Shown: piece after piece, positions 3,081-24,147 of the stretch | Layout of the letters: every line of letters starts with the position of its first letter | How positions within the stretch are numbered: the stretch's first letter is position 1 | Origin: Candidatus Bathyarchaeota archaeon | GTDB taxonomy: Archaea > Thermoproteota > Bathyarchaeia > Bathyarchaeales > Bathycorpusculaceae | Direction of reading: 5' to 3' | NCBI GenBank assembly: GCA_030672945.1 | Contig: DAOVFL010000001.1 | Coordinates: 1 to 28,614 of the forward strand | Length of the DNA stretch: 28,614 bases | Notes under the pieces: model-generated | What the model saw: only the letters and a program-made list of their open reading frames with translations | What the model was told of the DNA's origin: nothing | Databases searched by the model: none | Program-made: the position numbers and the translations under genes

Positions 3081-4481
3081 ATGTCACTTAAATGTATTCA
3101 ATGCGGTTCAAAATCTCCACCTTATCCGCCAAAAAGCATGTGTGAAAAATGCGGAGGAATATTGGAATATGAGATTATTCTACAAAATAAACATAAGATC
3201 AAGTTTTCTGGCAAGCTTCGTTTTTGGAGGTATAGGGCGTTACTTCCTCCTGTAAGTAATATTATGAGTTTAGGTGAAGGTGGAACACGTCTACATAAGG
3301 CTAAGAGGCTTGCCAAAAAAGTTGGGTTGAATGATCTTTATCTAAAGGACGAAACCAGAAACCCAACCAACTCTTTTAGAGATCGTGCAGCAGCACTTCT
3401 AACTACAAATGCAATAGATCTTAAACATGACACATTAATCTGTGCAACCAACGGAAACCTAGGTGCTTCCTTAGCTGCCTATTCTGCAAAGGCTGGGTTA
3501 ATCTGTAATGTAATTGTTCCCAAACTTGTTGACGTTGGAAAACTGGCTCAAATGCTCGTCTACGACGCTGCCATTGAAGAGTTCGGAGTAACAGTCGACG
3601 ACTCCATAATCAGAGCTGAAGCTTTAGCCAAAGAAACTGGCTGGTATCAAGCAACCGCAGAGCTAAATCCGCTTGTAATTGAAGCACAGAAAACAATTTC
3701 CTATGAAGTCTATGAGCAGTTTGGTGTTCCAGACTGGCTTATAGTTTCCATGGGAGGAGGCGGAACCATATACTCAATATGGAAAGGCTTCAAAGAACTT
3801 GAACAGCTCGGAATAACGAATTCCATGCCAAGAATGATCGGAGTCCAACCTAAGGGATGCGCCCCCATAACTAGAACATTACTGGAAGGTCATTTCCAAC
3901 CATTAAAAATTTCGAAGCCATCTACCCGTGCACTGGCTGTACTAGTAGCTCACCCTCTTCAAGGCGAACTAGCTATAAAGGCGATAAAAGAATCAGACGG
4001 CTTGACTTTAACAGTTTCCGACTCTAAGATCTTCACAGCAGAACTTCAGATAGCTAAACTCGAAGGAATATTCGCTGAACCAGCAAGCTCTGCCACAATA
4101 GCAGCACTAAAAAAGCTTATCAAAGAAGAGCAAATCAGCAAAAATGAAAGTGTTGTATGCCTCATCACTGGAAGCGGACTTAAAGCCACAAATGTACTAC
4201 AAGCATTAACCAAAAAACAGAAGACAGCTGTTCTAGGCTTAGACATAAGCACAAAAGAAAAAATACTTCGAATCTTAAGCATAAAAGACACATACGGGTA
4301 TAACGCGTGGAAAAAACTGGGAAAAGTTATAACAAGAGCGGCCATATACCAACACCTAAACGAGCTCTCAGAAAAAGGACTAGTAGTAGGCTACGGAAAA
4401 AATGGAAAAAAATTCTTCAAAATAACAGAACGCGGTAAGAAAGTTCTACGTGCAATTGATGATATAAAACTTCTACTTTAA
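3081..4481 (+). CDS. Threonine-synthase-like fold-type II protein with Lys-to-Arg at the PLP site, fused to a C-terminal PadR-like winged HTH
   Basis: N-terminal CxxC..CxxC, SLGEGGT, NPTNSFRDR (canonical NPTGSFKDR), TNGNLG, SMGGGGT, EPASSA, TGSGLK. Residues ~391-466 read YGY..TRAAIYQHLNELSEKGL..FKITERG. Confidence 0.9.
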   Translation: MSLKCIQCGSKSPPYPPKSMCEKCGGILEYEIILQNKHKIKFSGKLRFWRYRALLPPVSNIMSLGEGGTRLHKAKRLAKKVGLNDLYLKDETRNPTNSFRDRAAALLTTNAIDLKHDTLICATNGNLGASLAAYSAKAGLICNVIVPKLVDVGKLAQMLVYDAAIEEFGVTVDDSIIRAEALAKETGWYQATAELNPLVIEAQKTISYEVYEQFGVPDWLIVSMGGGGTIYSIWKGFKELEQLGITNSMPRMIGVQPKGCAPITRTLLEGHFQPLKISKPSTRALAVLVAHPLQGELAIKAIKESDGLTLTVSDSKIFTAELQIAKLEGIFAEPASSATIAALKKLIKEEQISKNESVVCLITGSGLKATNVLQALTKKQKTAVLGLDISTKEKILRILSIKDTYGYNAWKKLGKVITRAAIYQHLNELSEKGLVVGYGKNGKKFFKITERGKKVLRAIDDIKLLL

Positions 4482-11234: not shown

Positions 11235-12680
11235 TTAGCCTCCAAACACTTTTCTGAAAGCTGGGTACATTTCAGCAGCTCTTTCCCGCATTAATATCTC
11301 ATAATACTGATAAATTATTCCGACAGAAAGCAGAATGCCCATTCCAGAACCGAAAACTCCAAAAAAGTCTGAAACACCAGCAATCAACGCTACGACTATC
11401 CCGCCAAGAATTGTGACAGTAGGAATGTAACGTTTAAGAATAGATTCAACAGCCCTTCCAGATCGCCTGTACCCTGGAATCTGCATACCTGCACCTACAA
11501 GTTGTTTTGCTACTGTCGATGGATCTAAACCGCCAACTTCAAGCCACGTAAGCGAAAAAACAACACAAAAAGCAACAAGAATCCCAAGATATACCAAAGC
11601 CTTGAAAGGATCTCCCATTACACCTGTAAAACTTCGTGGCGAAATCACATAATACACGAGTCCGCCTACAGGTGTAAGGCTTTCTTGGCCAACCTCCCCA
11701 ATCCATTCAAACTGCCCCATAAGATCAAGCCAGAAATTGGTTCCTGGAGGAGGTTGGCCACTCATGTTCCAGAAGATTTGGGAAAAGAAGTACACATTAG
11801 CGAAAAGTGCGGATGCAAAGATTACTGGAAGGTTGGATACGTATAAAAGTTTTATTGGATATCGACTGCGGAAGCCCTTGTAGCCAGCGTATGACAGCGG
11901 TAATTCAAGTTTCACTCCTTCCATGTACATGATTATCAGAAAAGCAGCAACTGTGACCATGAGCCCGAGTATAGAAGGGTTTTGACCTCTAAGTAACAGC
12001 ACAGTGACTGGTTCACCGACAGATAGAACTTGAGCTAAAGCTATAAAAATGCCATAGCTTCTAGGTTCACCTATGGCTATCGTAGGGGAAAAACATTGCC
12101 AGAAAATTCCCTGTGCAACCCCACCCATGATGAACAGGCTTATTCCGCTTCCGAATCCCCAACCTTTTTGAACCAGTTCATCCAACATTAGAACAATCAG
12201 CCCAGCTGCTAAGAGTTGAAGGAAAATAATTATAGATATTGTGCCAGGTAAGCTTTCACCGGGTGCATTATACATTCCACCAATTATGTATGCAGATGCT
12301 TGAACCCCCGTGAGAACTATGGAGAAGACTTTACTGGCTGTCGTGAATAGACTTCTATCTTCAGGACGTGACATGTCACAGTCTATCATTGATGAGCCAA
12401 CTAAAAGCTGTAGTATTAACCCTGCTGTGACTATTGGACCGATACCAAGTTCCATGAGGGTCCCACGACTGGAAGCAAAAATTATTCTGAGAGCAGCGAG
12501 CTCTCCAAGCTGTGTTGTTTTAATACCGTATAGGGGAATTTCAGTCATTATTAAGTAGATAATGAGAACTAATGCTGTCCAGAAAAGTTTTTCATTAAAT
12601 CGTACTTTACGTTCCGGAACCTTAATTTCCGGAACAATCCTAGCAATGGATTTAAATAGACTTAGAAACCTGCCAGCCAT
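11235..12680 (-). CDS. secY: Preprotein translocase SecY (Sec61 alpha)
   Basis: GTLMELGIGPIVTAG, GFGSGISLFI, YPIKLLYVSNLPVI, IPGYR, GSGMGILL. Confidence 0.98.
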   Translation of the reverse strand: MAGRFLSLFKSIARIVPEIKVPERKVRFNEKLFWTALVLIIYLIMTEIPLYGIKTTQLGELAALRIIFASSRGTLMELGIGPIVTAGLILQLLVGSSMIDCDMSRPEDRSLFTTASKVFSIVLTGVQASAYIIGGMYNAPGESLPGTISIIIFLQLLAAGLIVLMLDELVQKGWGFGSGISLFIMGGVAQGIFWQCFSPTIAIGEPRSYGIFIALAQVLSVGEPVTVLLLRGQNPSILGLMVTVAAFLIIMYMEGVKLELPLSYAGYKGFRSRYPIKLLYVSNLPVIFASALFANVYFFSQIFWNMSGQPPPGTNFWLDLMGQFEWIGEVGQESLTPVGGLVYYVISPRSFTGVMGDPFKALVYLGILVAFCVVFSLTWLEVGGLDPSTVAKQLVGAGMQIPGYRRSGRAVESILKRYIPTVTILGGIVVALIAGVSDFFGVFGSGMGILLSVGIIYQYYEILMRERAAEMYPAFRKVFGG

Positions 12681-12683
12681 GGA

Positions 12684-13133
12684 TTATCCGCTACTCTTCA
12701 GCTTATCTAATTCTTCTACGATTTGTCCATTAGCACTTCTTATTTTTTCAGCTGCTGACCTTGAACAGTATGGCACCTTCACAATCAGAGGTGTTGTAAC
12801 GTTGCCTGTGCCTAAAAGTTTTACGTAGCCGAGGTTTTCAAGGTCTATGAAGAATTTACCCTCTTCCTTTCTTATCGAGAGTTTCTCAGCCATTTCATCT
12901 AGCACTCCAACATTTATGATATTCTTTTTTCGCCTTAGACTTTTAGGTGAAGTGAAACCTCTCTTACCGAAATAGTCCGGTTCATATTTTATCACGTAGG
13001 TCCATTTGTGTTTATGGAACCCTGCCTTCCCATGACCTCCTCTCGATCCTCCTGCTCTATGCTGACCTACTCTGCCGTAACCGTGAGTTCTTGAACCACG
13101 TTGTTTTCTGATTTTTCGAAGTCTATGAGGCAT
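12684..13133 (-). CDS. rpl15: Ribosomal protein uL15
   Basis: RKQRGSRTHGYG..HR..GSRGG.G.AG..KHKW, FGKRGF, KLLGTG. Confidence 0.97.
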   Translation of the reverse strand: MPHRLRKIRKQRGSRTHGYGRVGQHRAGGSRGGHGKAGFHKHKWTYVIKYEPDYFGKRGFTSPKSLRRKKNIINVGVLDEMAEKLSIRKEEGKFFIDLENLGYVKLLGTGNVTTPLIVKVPYCSRSAAEKIRSANGQIVEELDKLKSSG

Positions 13134-13135
13134 TT

Positions 13136-13618
13136 TCAGCCAGCTACCTTGTCAATAGTTTTTCCTTCAAGAGCCTTATCTAATTGTATTTTGAGCACAC
13201 CGTTCTTATATGATGTATGCACGATGTCTGGAATCACTCTTTTAGGAAGATTTAAACTTTTATAATATCTCCGATTTGAAGCCTCAGCAGATAAGATTAA
13301 CCGTTGATCTTTCACATGAATTTTAAGATCTTCTTTTTCAAACCCTGCGAATTCCGTAACAACTATTATTTTATTCTTTTCTTCAAAAACGTCGACTAGA
13401 GGTTCACGCTTCCGCCATTTTCTTCCTCTACGGGCTTTCAAAAGATTATGTTTATAGTAATATGTTCCCCTTTTAGTTCTTGTATTATTAACCCGGTGTA
13501 GTTTAGGAGTCTTTTTGTTCTTAACTCTACCGAAGTCTCTGGAAATGTGAAATCGTTTTGAACCTTTTTTATGTCTTCGCCATCTCGCGCTCAAATATGC
13601 CTTCTCCTTGACTAACAT
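13136..13618 (-). CDS. Hsp20/alpha-crystallin-family protein with a highly basic N-terminal region
   Basis: REPLVDVFEE..VVTEFAG..KEDLKI..YYKSLNLPKRV..SYKNGVLKIQLDK. Its stop is 2 nt from the uL15 start. Confidence 0.85.
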   Translation of the reverse strand: MLVKEKAYLSARWRRHKKGSKRFHISRDFGRVKNKKTPKLHRVNNTRTKRGTYYYKHNLLKARRGRKWRKREPLVDVFEEKNKIIVVTEFAGFEKEDLKIHVKDQRLILSAEASNRRYYKSLNLPKRVIPDIVHTSYKNGVLKIQLDKALEGKTIDKVAG

Positions 13619-13660
13619 GGCATTTAAAAAGTAACTATAAAATGTATCGCATACAAAAAT

Positions 13661-13668
13661 GTTTAAAA
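13661..13668 (-). promoter_or_regulatory. Putative internal TATA box (TTTTAAAC) upstream of hsp20
   Basis: Lies in a 57-nt AT-rich gap within an otherwise tightly packed operon. Same octamer as upstream of lig. Confidence 0.5.
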
Positions 13669-13675
13669 TTGTGGT

Positions 13676-14164
13676 TCAGGTCATCCGCTTTATTAATTCA
13701 TTGATTTTTTCTCTACGATATCCAAGTTCGCCACCCATGCCATAGCCCTTCTTTACCTTTCCTTTGAAGCCTTTAGTTGGTGGATGTAGCCTAAAGACTG
13801 GTTTCACATCGGAAAGTTTCCAGTAGTCAGCATGGCAGTTAAATATTGCGTCCATGAGCTCTTCTAAAGATCTGTAACCATTTTCCTGTGCATACTTGTC
13901 TGTTAACTTCTTGTTGCCAAGAAGTTTTCCCCTTTCTTTTATCATCATGCTTACAGTTTCCATTGAGGCTTCACCCCAAGTGATGAAGTTTTGCGCCGTT
14001 TTCAACATTCCCAGGAATGAAGGTCGGTTATCAATTAAAACTGCATAGTTATTTCGTGCCAAGTTAAGCATTTGAAGGGTCCCCCTTACCTGCCGTGAGG
14101 CCCTAATTGTTCCTCGGATTCTCACAGCTACTAAGCATTTACGTTCTTTCACTTCTTCAGTCAC
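13676..14164 (-). CDS. rpl30: Ribosomal protein uL30
   Basis: AVRIRG, TLQMLNL, FRLHPPTKGFKG, GYRREKINELIKRM. Confidence 0.97.
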   Translation of the reverse strand: MTEEVKERKCLVAVRIRGTIRASRQVRGTLQMLNLARNNYAVLIDNRPSFLGMLKTAQNFITWGEASMETVSMMIKERGKLLGNKKLTDKYAQENGYRSLEELMDAIFNCHADYWKLSDVKPVFRLHPPTKGFKGKVKKGYGMGGELGYRREKINELIKRMT

Positions 14165-14806
14165 TTATCTCACCCAATCCATTGGTGTTATGAGGCTGTA
14201 TGTTCTCTTTAAGGCGTCAAAAACAGCGTATGCAAAAGATGGAACAGTTCTCGTTGAACCGTAACTTCTACTCCAGCAATCCTTTATGCCTGCAAGTCCA
14301 AGAATGACCTTTGCCACTTCACTTGCTACAAGACCTAAACCTCTTGGTCCTGGAAGAAGAACGATTCTCACGCCACCGCATTTCCCTTCAACTTTGAACT
14401 GCACTGAATGTGGTCTTCCACAACCGCATTTCCAGCTTCCACAACCTCTTCTAACAGGGACCAGATTTAATCGAGCATCCACCGCAGCCTTCTCTATAGC
14501 TGCCCGTACCTGTCTTGTTTTTCCAAAACCCAAACCAATGTAACCGTCCCTGTTTCCAACTGCAACCATTGCCTTAAACCTTGATTTTTCACCGGCATCT
14601 GTCTGTTTTTGAACCAGATTTACATCTATGACTTCTTCTTGAAGGCCTGGAAGCAAAGTATCTACAATTTGTGGTTCACGTATCCTCAGGCCTTCCATAA
14701 ATATTTCTTCAATAGATGCGATTCTGCCCTCTTGTATCATCTTACCAAGGCGTGTTTTAGGAACCCACCTTTCAAGACCTTCCAACGTTCTACGTGAACG
14801 TCTCAA
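14165..14806 (-). CDS. rps5: Ribosomal protein uS5
   Basis: [40 protein letters not shown]. Confidence 0.98.
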
Positions 14807-20777: not shown

Positions 20778-21476
20778 TTACTTAGCGGTCTCCTCTCTAC
20801 TTGTTTCTTTAGGTTTTTCTTCGGCTTTTTCTTTAAGTATTTCTTCTTCTGTTGTGTCTTCTTCTGTTTGTTCTTCTGGGAGGCTTTCAATTATTTGGGT
20901 TTTATCTGGGAACTTTGCGTCTGGAGGCATTATCCTAACCTTTACGCCAAGCATGCCTGATTTTAATTGAACGTGAACTTCGGCTTTCCTCGTGTATTTT
21001 AATGCTGGATCACCGCATTTCGGTAAGTATCCAGCTTTGAATTTTTCATATCTTGCCCTCGCTGTTCTTAGTTTTCCACTTATGCATATTTCCAAGCCAA
21101 GGGCTCCTGCCTCCATAACTTGATTCAACGCCCAATACCCTGAGCGTCTATAATGTATACCTCTTTGTAGGGCTGAGGCAATGCGTGAGGCAACAACATA
21201 AGCGTTTAATTCTGGAATCTCCATTTCGGAAACAGAAATTTGAGGGTTTGAAACTTTGAATTTTTCTTCTAGAATTCTTGAAAGTTCTCTTATTGTTTCT
21301 CCACCTCGACCTATCACTACGCCTGGACGCATGGCATAAATGACTATGTGCGTTCCCAAGGGAGTCTTTGACATGTTCACCCCGCCATAACCCGCCCTTA
21401 CAAGTTCTTTTTGAAGGAACTCGTCTATTTCGTTCTTCTTCATGGACTCGGATATGAAATGCTTGACAACAGACAC
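20778..21476 (-). CDS. rps3: Ribosomal protein uS3 with an acidic C-terminal tail
   Basis: RAGYGG, RPGVVIGRGG (KH), SGKL...RAR, GMLGVKVRIMPP. Confidence 0.98.
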   Translation of the reverse strand: MSVVKHFISESMKKNEIDEFLQKELVRAGYGGVNMSKTPLGTHIVIYAMRPGVVIGRGGETIRELSRILEEKFKVSNPQISVSEMEIPELNAYVVASRIASALQRGIHYRRSGYWALNQVMEAGALGLEICISGKLRTARARYEKFKAGYLPKCGDPALKYTRKAEVHVQLKSGMLGVKVRIMPPDAKFPDKTQIIESLPEEQTEEDTTEEEILKEKAEEKPKETSREETAK

Positions 21477-21964
21477 TACATTTTCTCTCCTGTTTCCGGT
21501 TGTTCCTCTAGAGCTACTTCAATATGGCATAGAGTCCCAATTTTTGGTGAACTCCTTCCAAATGCTCTTTGCATGTATCGCTTAATCTTCAGGCCGGGAT
21601 ATGCTGATGCGTGAATTATGCGTAGTTTTTCGGTGTCTAAGCCCTTATACTCAGCGTTGGCCTCTCCACCCTTAAGAATCTTCAGAATATGCTTTGCTGC
21701 TTTCACCGGGTACCTACCTGCATAAGCCTTCTCCAGTCCGTGGCGATGTCCAACCTTCTTTTTGAATCTTCTGAAGGGAACAGGTTTCTTCTTAGCTATA
21801 ACATCTCCAAGATACTGTTTTGCTTGAGTGAGCATCATGCCTTTAATTGTCCTGCAAACCTCTCTGGCTGATTTATGGGATACCCTAATCTCTCTTCCGC
21901 TTGCTTTCACGGTTTTCTCCGGATCTAATTCCCCTTCCGTTATGGAGTATCCCCATTTTGGCAC
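21476..21964 (-). CDS. rpl22: Ribosomal protein uL22
   Basis: SHKSARE, VPFRRF, GRYPVKAA, RAFGR. Probable GTG start MPKWGYS at 21964. Confidence 0.97.
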   Translation of the reverse strand: MPKWGYSITEGELDPEKTVKASGREIRVSHKSAREVCRTIKGMMLTQAKQYLGDVIAKKKPVPFRRFKKKVGHRHGLEKAYAGRYPVKAAKHILKILKGGEANAEYKGLDTEKLRIIHASAYPGLKIKRYMQRAFGRSSPKIGTLCHIEVALEEQPETGEKM

Positions 21965-22007
21965 TTTATAATCTCTCCAATTGTGCAATTGAACAGCTAA
22001 ATTGTGG

Positions 22008-22021
22008 TTTATATGGTTTTC
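22008..22021 (-). promoter_or_regulatory. Putative BRE/TATA (gaaaaccATATAAA) for the uL22-led operon
   Basis: A purine-rich run followed by ATATAAA, ~45 nt upstream of the GTG. Confidence 0.45.
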
Positions 22022-22136
22022 CATCAGTGTAAACATTTTTAAGGCTACTCTGTGTCTCTACAACAGCACGCGCTAATTTATTTAGAAAGTGAACATTCTT
22101 GATTTGCATTTTCAAAACAGAAAGGGGAAATTGCGA

Positions 22137-22744
22137 TTAAGTTATGAAGACGTTGCAGAAGGTGGGGGAGGAGGTGGCGGAGGTTGTAGGGGTGCCGACG
22201 ACGACTTCAATGAGAGATAAAAGTGCACAGCCGCCAACTGTGAAAATGACATTTAGAATCCAGCTTATCACAGTCCCAATATATGCACCGACAACTGGAA
22301 TAAATGCGAAACCAATTCCAAGGATTAACGAAACAACGATCACAATGATTATGAAGATAATAACTTCTCCCGAATTTTTGACAATAAAGTTAAACGATCT
22401 GTTTGTGCTCTCGATGGCATCTGTTCCCTCTATTAGGGCAGTGGTAATGATGAATAGAGCAACAGGAATTAATACAAATGTGATAAAGCACACATCTGAA
22501 ACAATGGCCGCTAGAATCAAAGTGCCTAATCTACTAGTGACAAGACTCACACTTTTCTTCATGTTCATGGGGTGTTCATTGATTATGTCGTTAGCCATAT
22601 CGACAATCATGCAGCTAGCTATAAATCCAATGATGGATGCCATAAAATGACCTAGCTAAACTATCCAAGGATTAGGGTATGCAACCTCGTAAAATCTTAG
22701 GTTTATCCAATCTCATACCATCCCTCTAATAGGGAAGACCACAT
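22137..22744 (-). pseudogene. Decayed polytopic membrane protein with a proline-rich tail
   Basis: In-frame TAG at 22656-22658 just upstream of MASIIG. One extra G near 22234-22235 shifts the end away from TVAAVHFYLSLKSSSAPLQPPPPPPPPSATSS*. The 5' end appears broken across several frames. Confidence 0.6.
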
Positions 22745-22766
22745 AGGCTAGTAATAGAAAGAATAG

Positions 22767-22901
22767 GTGAATAACAACCGCGCCGCGCGCGTCCCACAGG
22801 AGAAAGAAGCTCCTCAAATCTGCCCAACATGTGGAGGACCGCTAACATTTATTGACAAATATCAGAAATGGTATTGCCACAAGTGCCAAAAATACGCTTG
22901 A
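22767..22901 (+). CDS. 44-aa zinc-ribbon microprotein or gene fragment
   Basis: Manual translation from GTG: MNNNRAARVPQEKEAPQICPTCGGPLTFIDKYQKWYCHKCQKYA* (CPxC..WYCxxC). Not in the ORF track. Confidence 0.6.
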   Translation: MNNNRAARVPQEKEAPQICPTCGGPLTFIDKYQKWYCHKCQKYA

Positions 22902-23120
22902 ACAAGAATCCAATCTTCTGTATCACCCCTTATTTGTCCTGTTTGGAACACGTTTCATGTCCACGTACATTAATAGTAGATTTAATCGCTTCAGCACACG
23001 CATGACAAACTACAAACAATAAGAAGAAACAGAACGGGTACACCTAAAGGCAATTCCATGAAATGAACAAAGGGGTAATAGCACAGCAAAGCAAAAGCCA
23101 CATGCGTTGCCTCTATTATT

Positions 23121-23324
23121 CTATCTTTTCCACAAGTCCAAAACACGACCTGCCTTCACAAGCTTCCACTTACCAAAAAAACCCTTCTTATAAAAATGGT
23201 ATAAACCACACCGGGTGCACTGCATAACCCGCCTACCCTTTTTAAAGTCAAGCTCGTACAACTCTAAAGAGGAACCACAATCAATACACTTACCAACATA
23301 GGTTTTCTCGGTTTTATCACTCAT
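23121..23324 (-). CDS. 67-aa zinc-finger microprotein
   Basis: CIDCG..CTRCG. A TTTTAAAC box lies at 23373-23380, 49 nt upstream. Confidence 0.7.
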   Translation of the reverse strand: MSDKTEKTYVGKCIDCGSSLELYELDFKKGRRVMQCTRCGLYHFYKKGFFGKWKLVKAGRVLDLWKR

Positions 23325-23506
23325 TTGAAATCTTTCCTGCAAAGAGATTAGAATAAGATGAGACTGATTTATGTTTAAAACTTGCTAAACACGTTTACGC
23401 CTAGAATGACATTCAACTTCAACCATAAATAACAACTAACCAAATCTCGCACACGCTGTACAAATTTCCCAAACTATGCAAAGAACAAAAAAGGGAAAGT
23501 CAGACG

Positions 23507-23851
23507 CTATGGTGGAGGTGGTACACTACTTTCCGTTTCTTCTTCAAAGCGCAACTTGATTCCACCGATCCTTGGAGCAAGAAAGTTGTAAATCACTGCG
23601 ATAATCAACCCTTGTATGAGCCCTCCTATGAATCCCATTATTGGAAATAGTATGATTGACCCTAAGCCAAACAACATACCGAAACCAGTTAAGTCTACAC
23701 CGTTTGGCACTTGACCGACTATAGACATGATACTAGCCCAAAAAAAAATAGCCATTATGATACCAGCTATAAATCCTATTACTGCATTAATTGCTCCCAT
23801 CATCATTGCGAACGGCATTGCCGGTACGTTTCTTATTGTTCTTTCTTCCAC
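23507..23851 (-). CDS. Small membrane protein (DUF3566-like) with a PPPP tail
   Basis: Hydrophobic helices, GFIGGLI..YN..A..IGGIKL. Likely GTG start MEERTIRNV at 23851. A T-rich tract follows the stop. Confidence 0.65.
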   Translation of the reverse strand: MEERTIRNVPAMPFAMMMGAINAVIGFIAGIIMAIFFWASIMSIVGQVPNGVDLTGFGMLFGLGSIILFPIMGFIGGLIQGLIIAVIYNFLAPRIGGIKLRFEEETESSVPPPP

Positions 23852-24147
23852 ATAGACACATCCAATACTTTTCGTTTTTGTTAGTTGGAAACAGTGATCA
23901 TGTAAAGCTTTCCAGCCATTAACGTTCGGACCGCGTATAACTAAAATACTAAGGGATGTAGTAGGAGTGACATGACAAGGATAATAATCGAATCTTTCAC
24001 GCTGCATGGCTTTACACATGCACTAATGATCATGTACATTGAAGCGAGATTGAAATACTATCTTATTATCAAACCAGCGTGGCAAGGATTAGAAATATTA
24101 GCAACTTCTGTGCTTACCTAATATTCAAACCTTTAGGAAGCAGTAAA

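Follow-up and report, generated by a model that had tools for sequence, protein, structure and literature searches.

A gene encoding a small heat-shock protein lies between the ribosomal protein genes uL30 and uL15 of a Bathyarchaeia genome and is conserved there throughout its family. Sequence comparison shows its product to be a derived orthologue of the operon-resident archaeal Hsp20 (the Sulfolobus Hsp20.1 or NF041800 type). Placement of an Hsp20 gene between uL30 and uL15 is already known in archaea; what is new is the basic derivative without an IXI motif. We tentatively read this protein as a polyanion-binding alpha-crystallin-domain (ACD) protein that would act on rRNA or ribosomal particles, and we hold this with a confidence slightly short of even. 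The window, the whole stretch of DNA analysed here, comprises 28,614 nucleotides and comes from a Bathyarchaeia MAG of 0.85 Mb that is 72% complete.

A minus-strand open frame of 160 aa at 13136..13618 is flanked by uL30 (13676..14164, minus strand; Pfam Ribosomal_L30, E 4.9e-9) and uL15 (12684..13133, minus strand; Pfam Ribosomal_L27A, E 2e-15). Residues 77-152 of this frame match Pfam HSP20 (PF00011) with E 7e-10 and 39.3 bits against a cut-off of 20.8, bearing out a sequence-only reading that had recognised an alpha-crystallin-domain gene between the two ribosomal genes. That reading had let the frame extend to 13618, and here it needed correction. In 99 related loci the codon preceding the conserved S-A-K-W-R-R is TTG in 76, ATG in 9 and GTG in 5, and leucine codons other than TTG almost never occupy this position. 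A Shine-Dalgarno-like sequence, AAGGAGAAGG (13600..13609, minus strand), corresponds to a GGAG/GGGG run located 7-12 nt 5' of the start codon in nearly all loci, and a few related loci carry a stop codon immediately 5' of the start. Start-codon usage, the Shine-Dalgarno match and these stops show that the gene occupies 13136..13594 (minus strand, stop codon 13136..13138), beginning at TTG 13594 and not at the ATG 13618 of the longer frame. The predicted product of 152 aa is further supported by a 77-sequence alignment (A2) and by dN/dS values well below 1.

Full-length homologues number 567; most are 152 aa long and start with M/L-S-A-K-W-R-R, and an internal stop was found in just one of 80 species loci. 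We conclude that this is a functional, vertically inherited gene. The idea that TTG marks a weak start was rejected, as uL30 and uS5 in the same loci mostly begin with TTG or GTG too. Start codons in the family follow a sharp, conserved split within one cluster: uL30 uses TTG in 36 loci, GTG in 18 and ATG in 4, and uS5 mostly TTG, while ATG opens uL15 in 79 of 79 and secY in 75 of 75.

The minus-strand cluster runs from uL22 (21476..22036) to uL30, the Hsp20 variant, uL15, secY (11235..12680, minus strand, assigned by tblastn synteny), a gene for an EMC3/DUF106-type insertase, eL34 and a cytidylate-kinase-like gene. The Hsp20 variant stands directly 5' of uL15, at a distance of 1-30 nt, in all of the 80 best loci of the GTDB species collection. 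The complete order uS5-uL30-Hsp20-uL15-secY is present in 63 of them; uL30 is upstream in 66, and at the 14 loci without it Hsp20, uL15 and secY are still together. All 24 sampled genomes of the family, covering 17 genera beyond the window's own, carry the variant at this junction, and five more bring the count to 29 of 29 genomes with contig context. The position is thus not unique to the window's genome, a possibility that had been named as grounds for abandoning the earlier interpretation.

Coupling to uL15 is tight. The stop codon of the Hsp20 variant lies 2 nt from the uL15 ATG, the distance reported before, and among 69 loci the gap is 1-4 nt in 57 and sometimes negative, the two genes then overlapping. 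We noticed that the last Hsp20 codons, …GCN-GGT-TAR (window 13139-13150), are conserved at 1-4 nt before the uL15 ATG and that the Hsp20 frame of several species extends over the uL15 start; the codons of the V-A-G tail may be kept because uL15 needs them for ribosome binding, and not for the residues that they encode. The notion of a dedicated chaperone of uL15 was set aside, as the two partners would each be strongly basic (pI 10.7 for the Hsp20 variant, 10.4 for uL15) and adjacency alone is no ground for binding.

Some further features of the window were noted. The cluster begins at uL22, and the usual uL3-uL4-uL23-uL2-uS19 block is not directly upstream (22137-24019); the frames in this region, at 22137..22643 on both strands and at 23507..24019, have no Pfam match, and a radical-SAM gene comes after them. 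At 3081-4481 on the plus strand a 466-aa protein combines a PLP-dependent enzyme domain (PALP, E 2e-72) with a C-terminal PadR-like winged-helix domain (E 2.5e-7).

Upstream of the Hsp20 variant we found a promoter-like element, GCGATACATTTTATAG (13635..13650, minus strand), whose CGATA..TTTTA core is invariant in the loci of 66 species, the proteins at these loci being just ~50% identical. Written as a 16-nt consensus, GCGATAC[A/G]TTTTATAG, the element is conserved far better than the protein encoded downstream. This is the only exact copy of GCGATACATTTTATAG in the window's own genome; a slightly varied motif precedes the operon Hsp20 copies of three other families in the survey described below (f7 and f19, whose copies are of the standard type, and the sister family f2). 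The element is also retained at loci with divergent upstream genes, where no read-through is possible since those genes point away. Going by what is usual in archaeal promoters, we read GCGATACATTTTATAG as a possible promoter of the BRE/TATA type, which may contain a regulator site in addition to the TATA box. The uL30 stop is separated from this element by a T-rich tract (13651..13669, minus strand), seen on reading the sequence and as a T-rich consensus in alignment A3, which may represent a transcript end or an attenuator of the upstream unit. If the promoter reading holds, the spc cluster would be split into …uS5-uL30 and Hsp20-uL15-secY…, and the separate promoter-like element together with the 1-4 nt distance to uL15 suggests that Hsp20-uL15-secY form one expression unit. 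RNAalifold placed zero pairs in the 5' region of 66 aligned sequences, and a search of 13000-14300 returned no Rfam families. An RNA thermometer, a leader structure and a GATAC…GTATC hairpin were dropped on the strength of the RNAalifold result.

The predicted structure of the protein falls into three parts. An AlphaFold2 model from a 77-row alignment places a helix at residues 3-15, low-confidence sequence at residues 16-60 (pLDDT 42-55) and a beta-sandwich at residues 61-142 (pLDDT ~90), the last corresponding to the seven- or eight-stranded beta-sandwich ACD of small heat-shock proteins (sHsps). This domain (13169..13414, minus strand) is predicted by a 4RZK profile and by Foldseek to be of the short type without a beta6 loop. 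Sequence and fold agree in naming the ACD of Sulfolobus solfataricus Hsp20.1 (PDB 4RZK) as the nearest solved structure, with a profile E of 1e-25 and a Foldseek match to 4rzk_A of TM 0.90, rmsd 1.1 A and 40% identity. EFAGF replaces ELPGV, the exchange of LPG for FAG pointed out earlier. The C-terminal tail (…K-T-I-D-K-V-A-G; 13139..13168, minus strand) has no IXI/V motif, and the absence, already suspected, is real: [IVL]-x-[IVL] occurs in none of 76 family tails, compared with 31 of 34 other Hsp20s. The C-terminal IXI ties sHsp dimers into large oligomers. A homodimer prediction with residues 56-152 and alignment A2 returned no answer (score 0.00), which speaks neither for a dimer nor against one.

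Two existing family models bear on classification. The NCBIfam model NF041800, 'archaeal heat shock protein Hsp20', scores 91.6 bits with the variant, below its cut-off of 140, and aligns only the ACD (model positions 69-153); proteins named by NCBI with this model are of the paralogue type described below. GvpH had also been proposed for comparison, but its family, PF05455, gave no match at E up to 0.01, and the neighbouring genes are ribosomal and not those of gas vesicles.

The N-terminal arm (residues 1-60; 13415..13594, minus strand) comprises the predicted helix at residues 3-15 and a Lys/Arg-rich stretch predicted to be disordered. Counted from the TTG start, it holds 26 K/R and 2 D/E in about 62-64 residues, a net charge of +24; the earlier count for residues 1-71 of the 160-aa frame, 28 K/R and 2 acidic, was correct. 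Its K+R fraction of 0.41 compares with 0.39 for eL19 and eL32 from the window, each taken at its most basic stretch of 64 residues. Over 23 representative family sequences the arm averages 62 residues, 21.4 K/R, 3.8 D/E, a net charge of +17.6 and a pI of 11.5, and the remainder of the protein is likewise basic (pI 9.2). The pI of the whole protein is 10.7 in the variant, where K+R make up 0.28 of residues, and 10.4 as the family mean, compared with ~7 in the paralogues. The N-terminal region of sHsps is typically hydrophobic and aromatic and serves client binding and oligomer stabilisation. No such region is present in the predicted-disordered arm with its K+R fraction of 0.41; the hydrophobic fraction is 0.20 in the window protein and 0.26 as the family mean, versus 0.29 in the paralogues.

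The arm is conserved. Among 77 sequences that share 38-68% overall identity with the window protein, S2, W5, R6 and R7 vary little or not at all, and the motif S-x-K-W-R-R is invariant in the family alignment. Median dN/dS by the Nei-Gojobori method (NG86) was 0.24 for the arm and 0.12 for the domain in 42 close pairs, values that are descriptive only because the pairs are not independent. They show the arm to be under purifying selection and to evolve about twice as fast as the ACD, as would suit a disordered region in which composition is what counts and partners are unspecific.

Its origin is local. When the arm was aligned by hhalign with the N-terminus of the standard Hsp20, 50 columns matched with a probability of 88.5% and E 2.7e-6, so that the arm is a normal Hsp20 N-terminus that diverged in place and not an acquired module. 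A profile of the arm found nine matches in 1.84 billion representative proteins; the six inspected belong to the same Hsp20 family, and so the arm has no relatives among ribosomal proteins in this search. Neither Pfam nor the profile search of the 1.84 billion representatives revealed a ribosomal-protein family or known RNA-binding motif similar to it, and with the arm alone as query the ESM Atlas gave scores of at most 0.82, which is noise level. The resemblance to a ribosomal-protein extension put forward in the sequence-only reading therefore stands for composition, K+R being at the level of ribosomal proteins, and falls for the module itself, which is a diverged Hsp20 N-terminus.

We surveyed 1-5 genomes from each of 30 Bathyarchaeia families, denoting the window's GTDB family f1 and its sister family f2. 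An Hsp20 gene occupies the uL30/uL15 junction in f1, f2, f7, f14, f16, f19 (one of two genomes), f20, f22, f27 (one of two) and f32, and also in f3. In 16 of the surveyed families uL30 abuts uL15, and in f28, f29, f34 and f35 no Hsp20 was seen at the junction, but there uL30 lies far away or does not appear in the sequence covered. Outside Bathyarchaeia, 3 of 21 sampled Thermoproteota families have a junction Hsp20. Of the expectations attached to this gene position, conservation across the window's family held up; the insertion as such is special neither to this genome nor to the basic form. In two other Bathyarchaeia families (L140, 1522-2201, and L150, 1525-2198) about 670 nt without an Hsp20 match separate uL30 from uL15, and one of these gaps holds an opposite-strand frame of 155 aa; the junction can have occupants other than Hsp20. 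An Hsp20-family gene inside the S10-spc cluster has been described in Thorarchaeota and Odinarchaeota, with horizontal transfer proposed (Tirumalai et al. 2023, Archaea 2023:5512414, PMC10833476). The best 120 matches of the standard operon Hsp20 were all from Bathyarchaeia, with no Asgard homologue among them, and the Asgard copies are outside our tree, so their relation to the present copies rests on that publication.

The operon Hsp20s of the other families begin with a W-W-K-R-R-R-R patch, followed by an acidic helix (F-D-E-F-D-R-L-E-D-M-M-D-E-M-M) and a Y-G-F-S…G-P-D-G-K-P…E-F-G-N segment. Their N-terminal net charge is about 0 (neutral or acidic), and most have an IXI motif, for example G-E-P-I-K-I-E. 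The polycationic arm is found in f1 and f2 only, f3 being intermediate (+10). IXI is kept in f2 and f3 and lost in f1, in 76 of 76 sequences. Forms with net charges of +10 and +16 that retain IXI thus stand between the standard type and the window's family.

A maximum-likelihood tree of the ACD was built from 94 columns, with the f7 copy L118 left out; owing to the small number of columns, many of its forks are unresolved. The f1 clade (98/90) has f2 as its sister (98/87), followed by f14+f27 and then by f19. These fall within a moderately supported group (84/79) made up of most operon copies and four non-operon rows, and the main clade of non-operon paralogues (96/89) is separate from it. For the f16 copy the tree gives only an unresolved basal position, and the stem branch of the family clade is long. 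The comparison with canonical Hsp20s that had been called for thus places f1 with the operon copies and apart from the main paralogue clade, as far as 94 columns of ACD can tell. Synteny directly 5' of uL15, the tree and the promoter motif all mark the variant as operon-resident, sharing descent with the other operon copies. Together, the tree, the common promoter motif, the hhalign result and the intermediate forms point to descent from the operon-resident standard type. A canonical paralogue of 197 aa, ending in P-I-S-V-D, is encoded on another contig of the window's genome and is present in most genomes of the family. Another genome of the genus encodes yet a third type of Hsp20 (L176, G001:C2:291253-292695). 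This protein has 250 aa and no IXI; its long N-terminus is rich in Lys and Glu and resembles a coiled coil, and a linker rich in Pro and Lys leads from there to the ACD.

These results can be assembled into a course of events. In f1 and f2 the N-terminus of the operon Hsp20 was remodelled in place, from about neutral to a disordered Lys/Arg arm of some 62 residues and about +17; the ACD turned basic as well, and f1 lost the IXI oligomer anchor. With a canonical IXI-bearing paralogue remaining elsewhere in the genome, the operon copy could, following a duplication of function, have been freed from the ordinary holdase job and become a small, non-oligomerising ACD 'head', probably a dimer or a monomer, equipped with a polycationic arm that could bind polyanions. 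Given the fixed co-expression with uL15 and the translocon, rRNA or ribosomal particles would be its most likely targets, and the protein would be a ribosome- or RNA-associated chaperone made along with the ribosomal proteins and not only under stress. Ribosome binding cannot be deduced from residence in the operon, because neutral, IXI-bearing Hsp20s hold the same junction elsewhere; nor does location say anything about it, because the gene had its place in the operon long before the basic arm arose. Polycations have other ligands too, among them DNA, acidic proteins and anionic membranes.

The family offers a natural experiment, in which operon and canonical copies coexist and intermediates are alive in sister families. 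In the operon copy the two sHsp features on which an oligomeric holdase depends are gone, and a charge typical of the RNA-binding extensions of ribosomal proteins has been gained. To our knowledge, the presence of Hsp20 genes in the most conserved ribosomal gene cluster of archaea has been noted and never explained. Should the arm bind rRNA or ribosomes, sHsp evolution would be linked to ribosome biogenesis or protection, and the function of the uL30-hsp20-uL15 arrangement as a whole would become more accessible. The RNA/ribosome-binding idea can be tested cheaply, on a protein of only 152 aa that is readily expressed.

The reading that survives best beside polyanion binding is that of an ordinary ATP-independent holdase, merely co-transcribed with ribosomal genes, whose basic arm is a lineage variation related to acidic clients or solubility. 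We consider it somewhat unlikely. In its favour, standard Hsp20s sit at the same junction in other lineages, the variant retains an intact ACD that closely resembles SsHsp20.1, variability is a known property of sHsp N-termini, and the sister family keeps IXI despite its basic arm. It sits poorly, however, with an arm that is extremely cationic and poor in hydrophobic residues and with an IXI missing from every family sequence. The canonical paralogue persists alongside, which suggests a division of labour, and the stem branch is long, as expected for functional change. If the arm is only a compositional quirk, the protein becomes a well-documented but ordinary sHsp variant.

A step beyond polyanion binding would be a true ribosome-bound factor of this lineage. 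The variant would then be a ribosomal protein new to science and specific to the lineage, or else a chaperone constitutively tethered to the ribosome, where it would meet nascent chains or rRNA during assembly. On present comparisons this is unlikely. Were it true, the translation machinery would have its first known alpha-crystallin-domain component, and the retention of Hsp20 genes beside uL15 across TACK and Asgard archaea would be explained.

The arm might bind something other than RNA, namely DNA, as in a nucleoid-associated protein, or anionic membranes near the Sec translocon. A disordered polycationic arm with a short amphipathic basic helix at residues 3-15 could bind any polyanion, and secY and the EMC3/DUF106 insertase gene follow in the unit. 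We regard these targets as improbable, given that Pfam and the AlphaFold2 model revealed neither a DNA-binding fold nor a membrane segment in the variant, and that the neighbourhood argument would be equally valid for the neutral standard Hsp20s.

More improbable still is a post-transcriptional regulator whose arm binds leader or intercistronic RNA of the Hsp20-uL15-secY message and thereby tunes translation of uL15 and SecY. Such a scheme resembles the autoregulation of ribosomal proteins. The tight coupling to uL15 and the conserved 5' region would suit it, as would the precedent of IbpA, an sHsp that regulates its own translation according to a preprint (bioRxiv 10.1101/2020.04.20.050740). 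The leader, however, shows no conserved RNA secondary structure or Rfam match, and most of the conserved block coincides with the TATA-like box or precedes it, so that the conservation is at the level of DNA.

To a structural, stoichiometric ribosomal protein derived from an sHsp and specific to the lineage we give a similarly slight chance. Encoding within the ribosomal cluster, presence in every sampled family genome, and a K+R content and pI matching those of ribosomal proteins are what one would look for in such a protein. The arm, on the other hand, evolves faster than its own ACD, the gene has its own promoter-like element, distribution is limited to one or two families, and Pfam and the profile search gave no homology to any ribosomal-protein family.

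An annotation artefact, in which the N-terminus is untranslated and the protein starts near R-E-P-L-V-D-V, had been conceded in advance by the sequence-only reading; it has nothing beyond the unusual composition in its favour and is refuted by a start codon and Shine-Dalgarno sequence conserved 62 codons upstream, by the conserved N-terminal alignment with its invariant S-x-K-W-R-R and by the purifying selection seen in the arm's dN/dS.

Among known systems the closest is SsHsp20.1 of Sulfolobus/Saccharolobus (4RZK), which has the same short ACD without a beta6 loop and an N-terminal W/R patch homologous to that of the variant. The variant differs from this protein and the NF041800 type in the Lys/Arg arm that replaces the acidic helix and the Y-G-F-S…G-P-D-G-K-P…E-F-G-N segment, and in the loss of IXI. 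SsHsp20.1 is active as a dimer, whereas the S. acidocaldarius orthologue forms 24-mers, as stated in a review (PMC9133787). That an alpha-crystallin protein can act on RNA or translation has a precedent in E. coli IbpA, which, according to the preprint, represses its own mRNA (bioRxiv 10.1101/2020.04.20.050740). IbpA has a canonical N-terminus and IXI and lies outside a ribosomal operon, and the Hsp20 variant for its part comes without an RNA element that we could find. E. coli Hsp15 has a role at the 50S and an S4-like RNA-binding fold, not an ACD, and no homology with the Hsp20 variant is implied. It is described as a nucleic-acid-binding heat-shock protein (Korber et al. 1999, as cited in PMC9133787). 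The copies of Thorarchaeota and Odinarchaeota (PMC10833476) likewise place an Hsp20 gene inside the S10-spc cluster; in contrast to the horizontal transfer proposed there, the family studied here presents vertical inheritance together with the promoter and a derived state reached stepwise.
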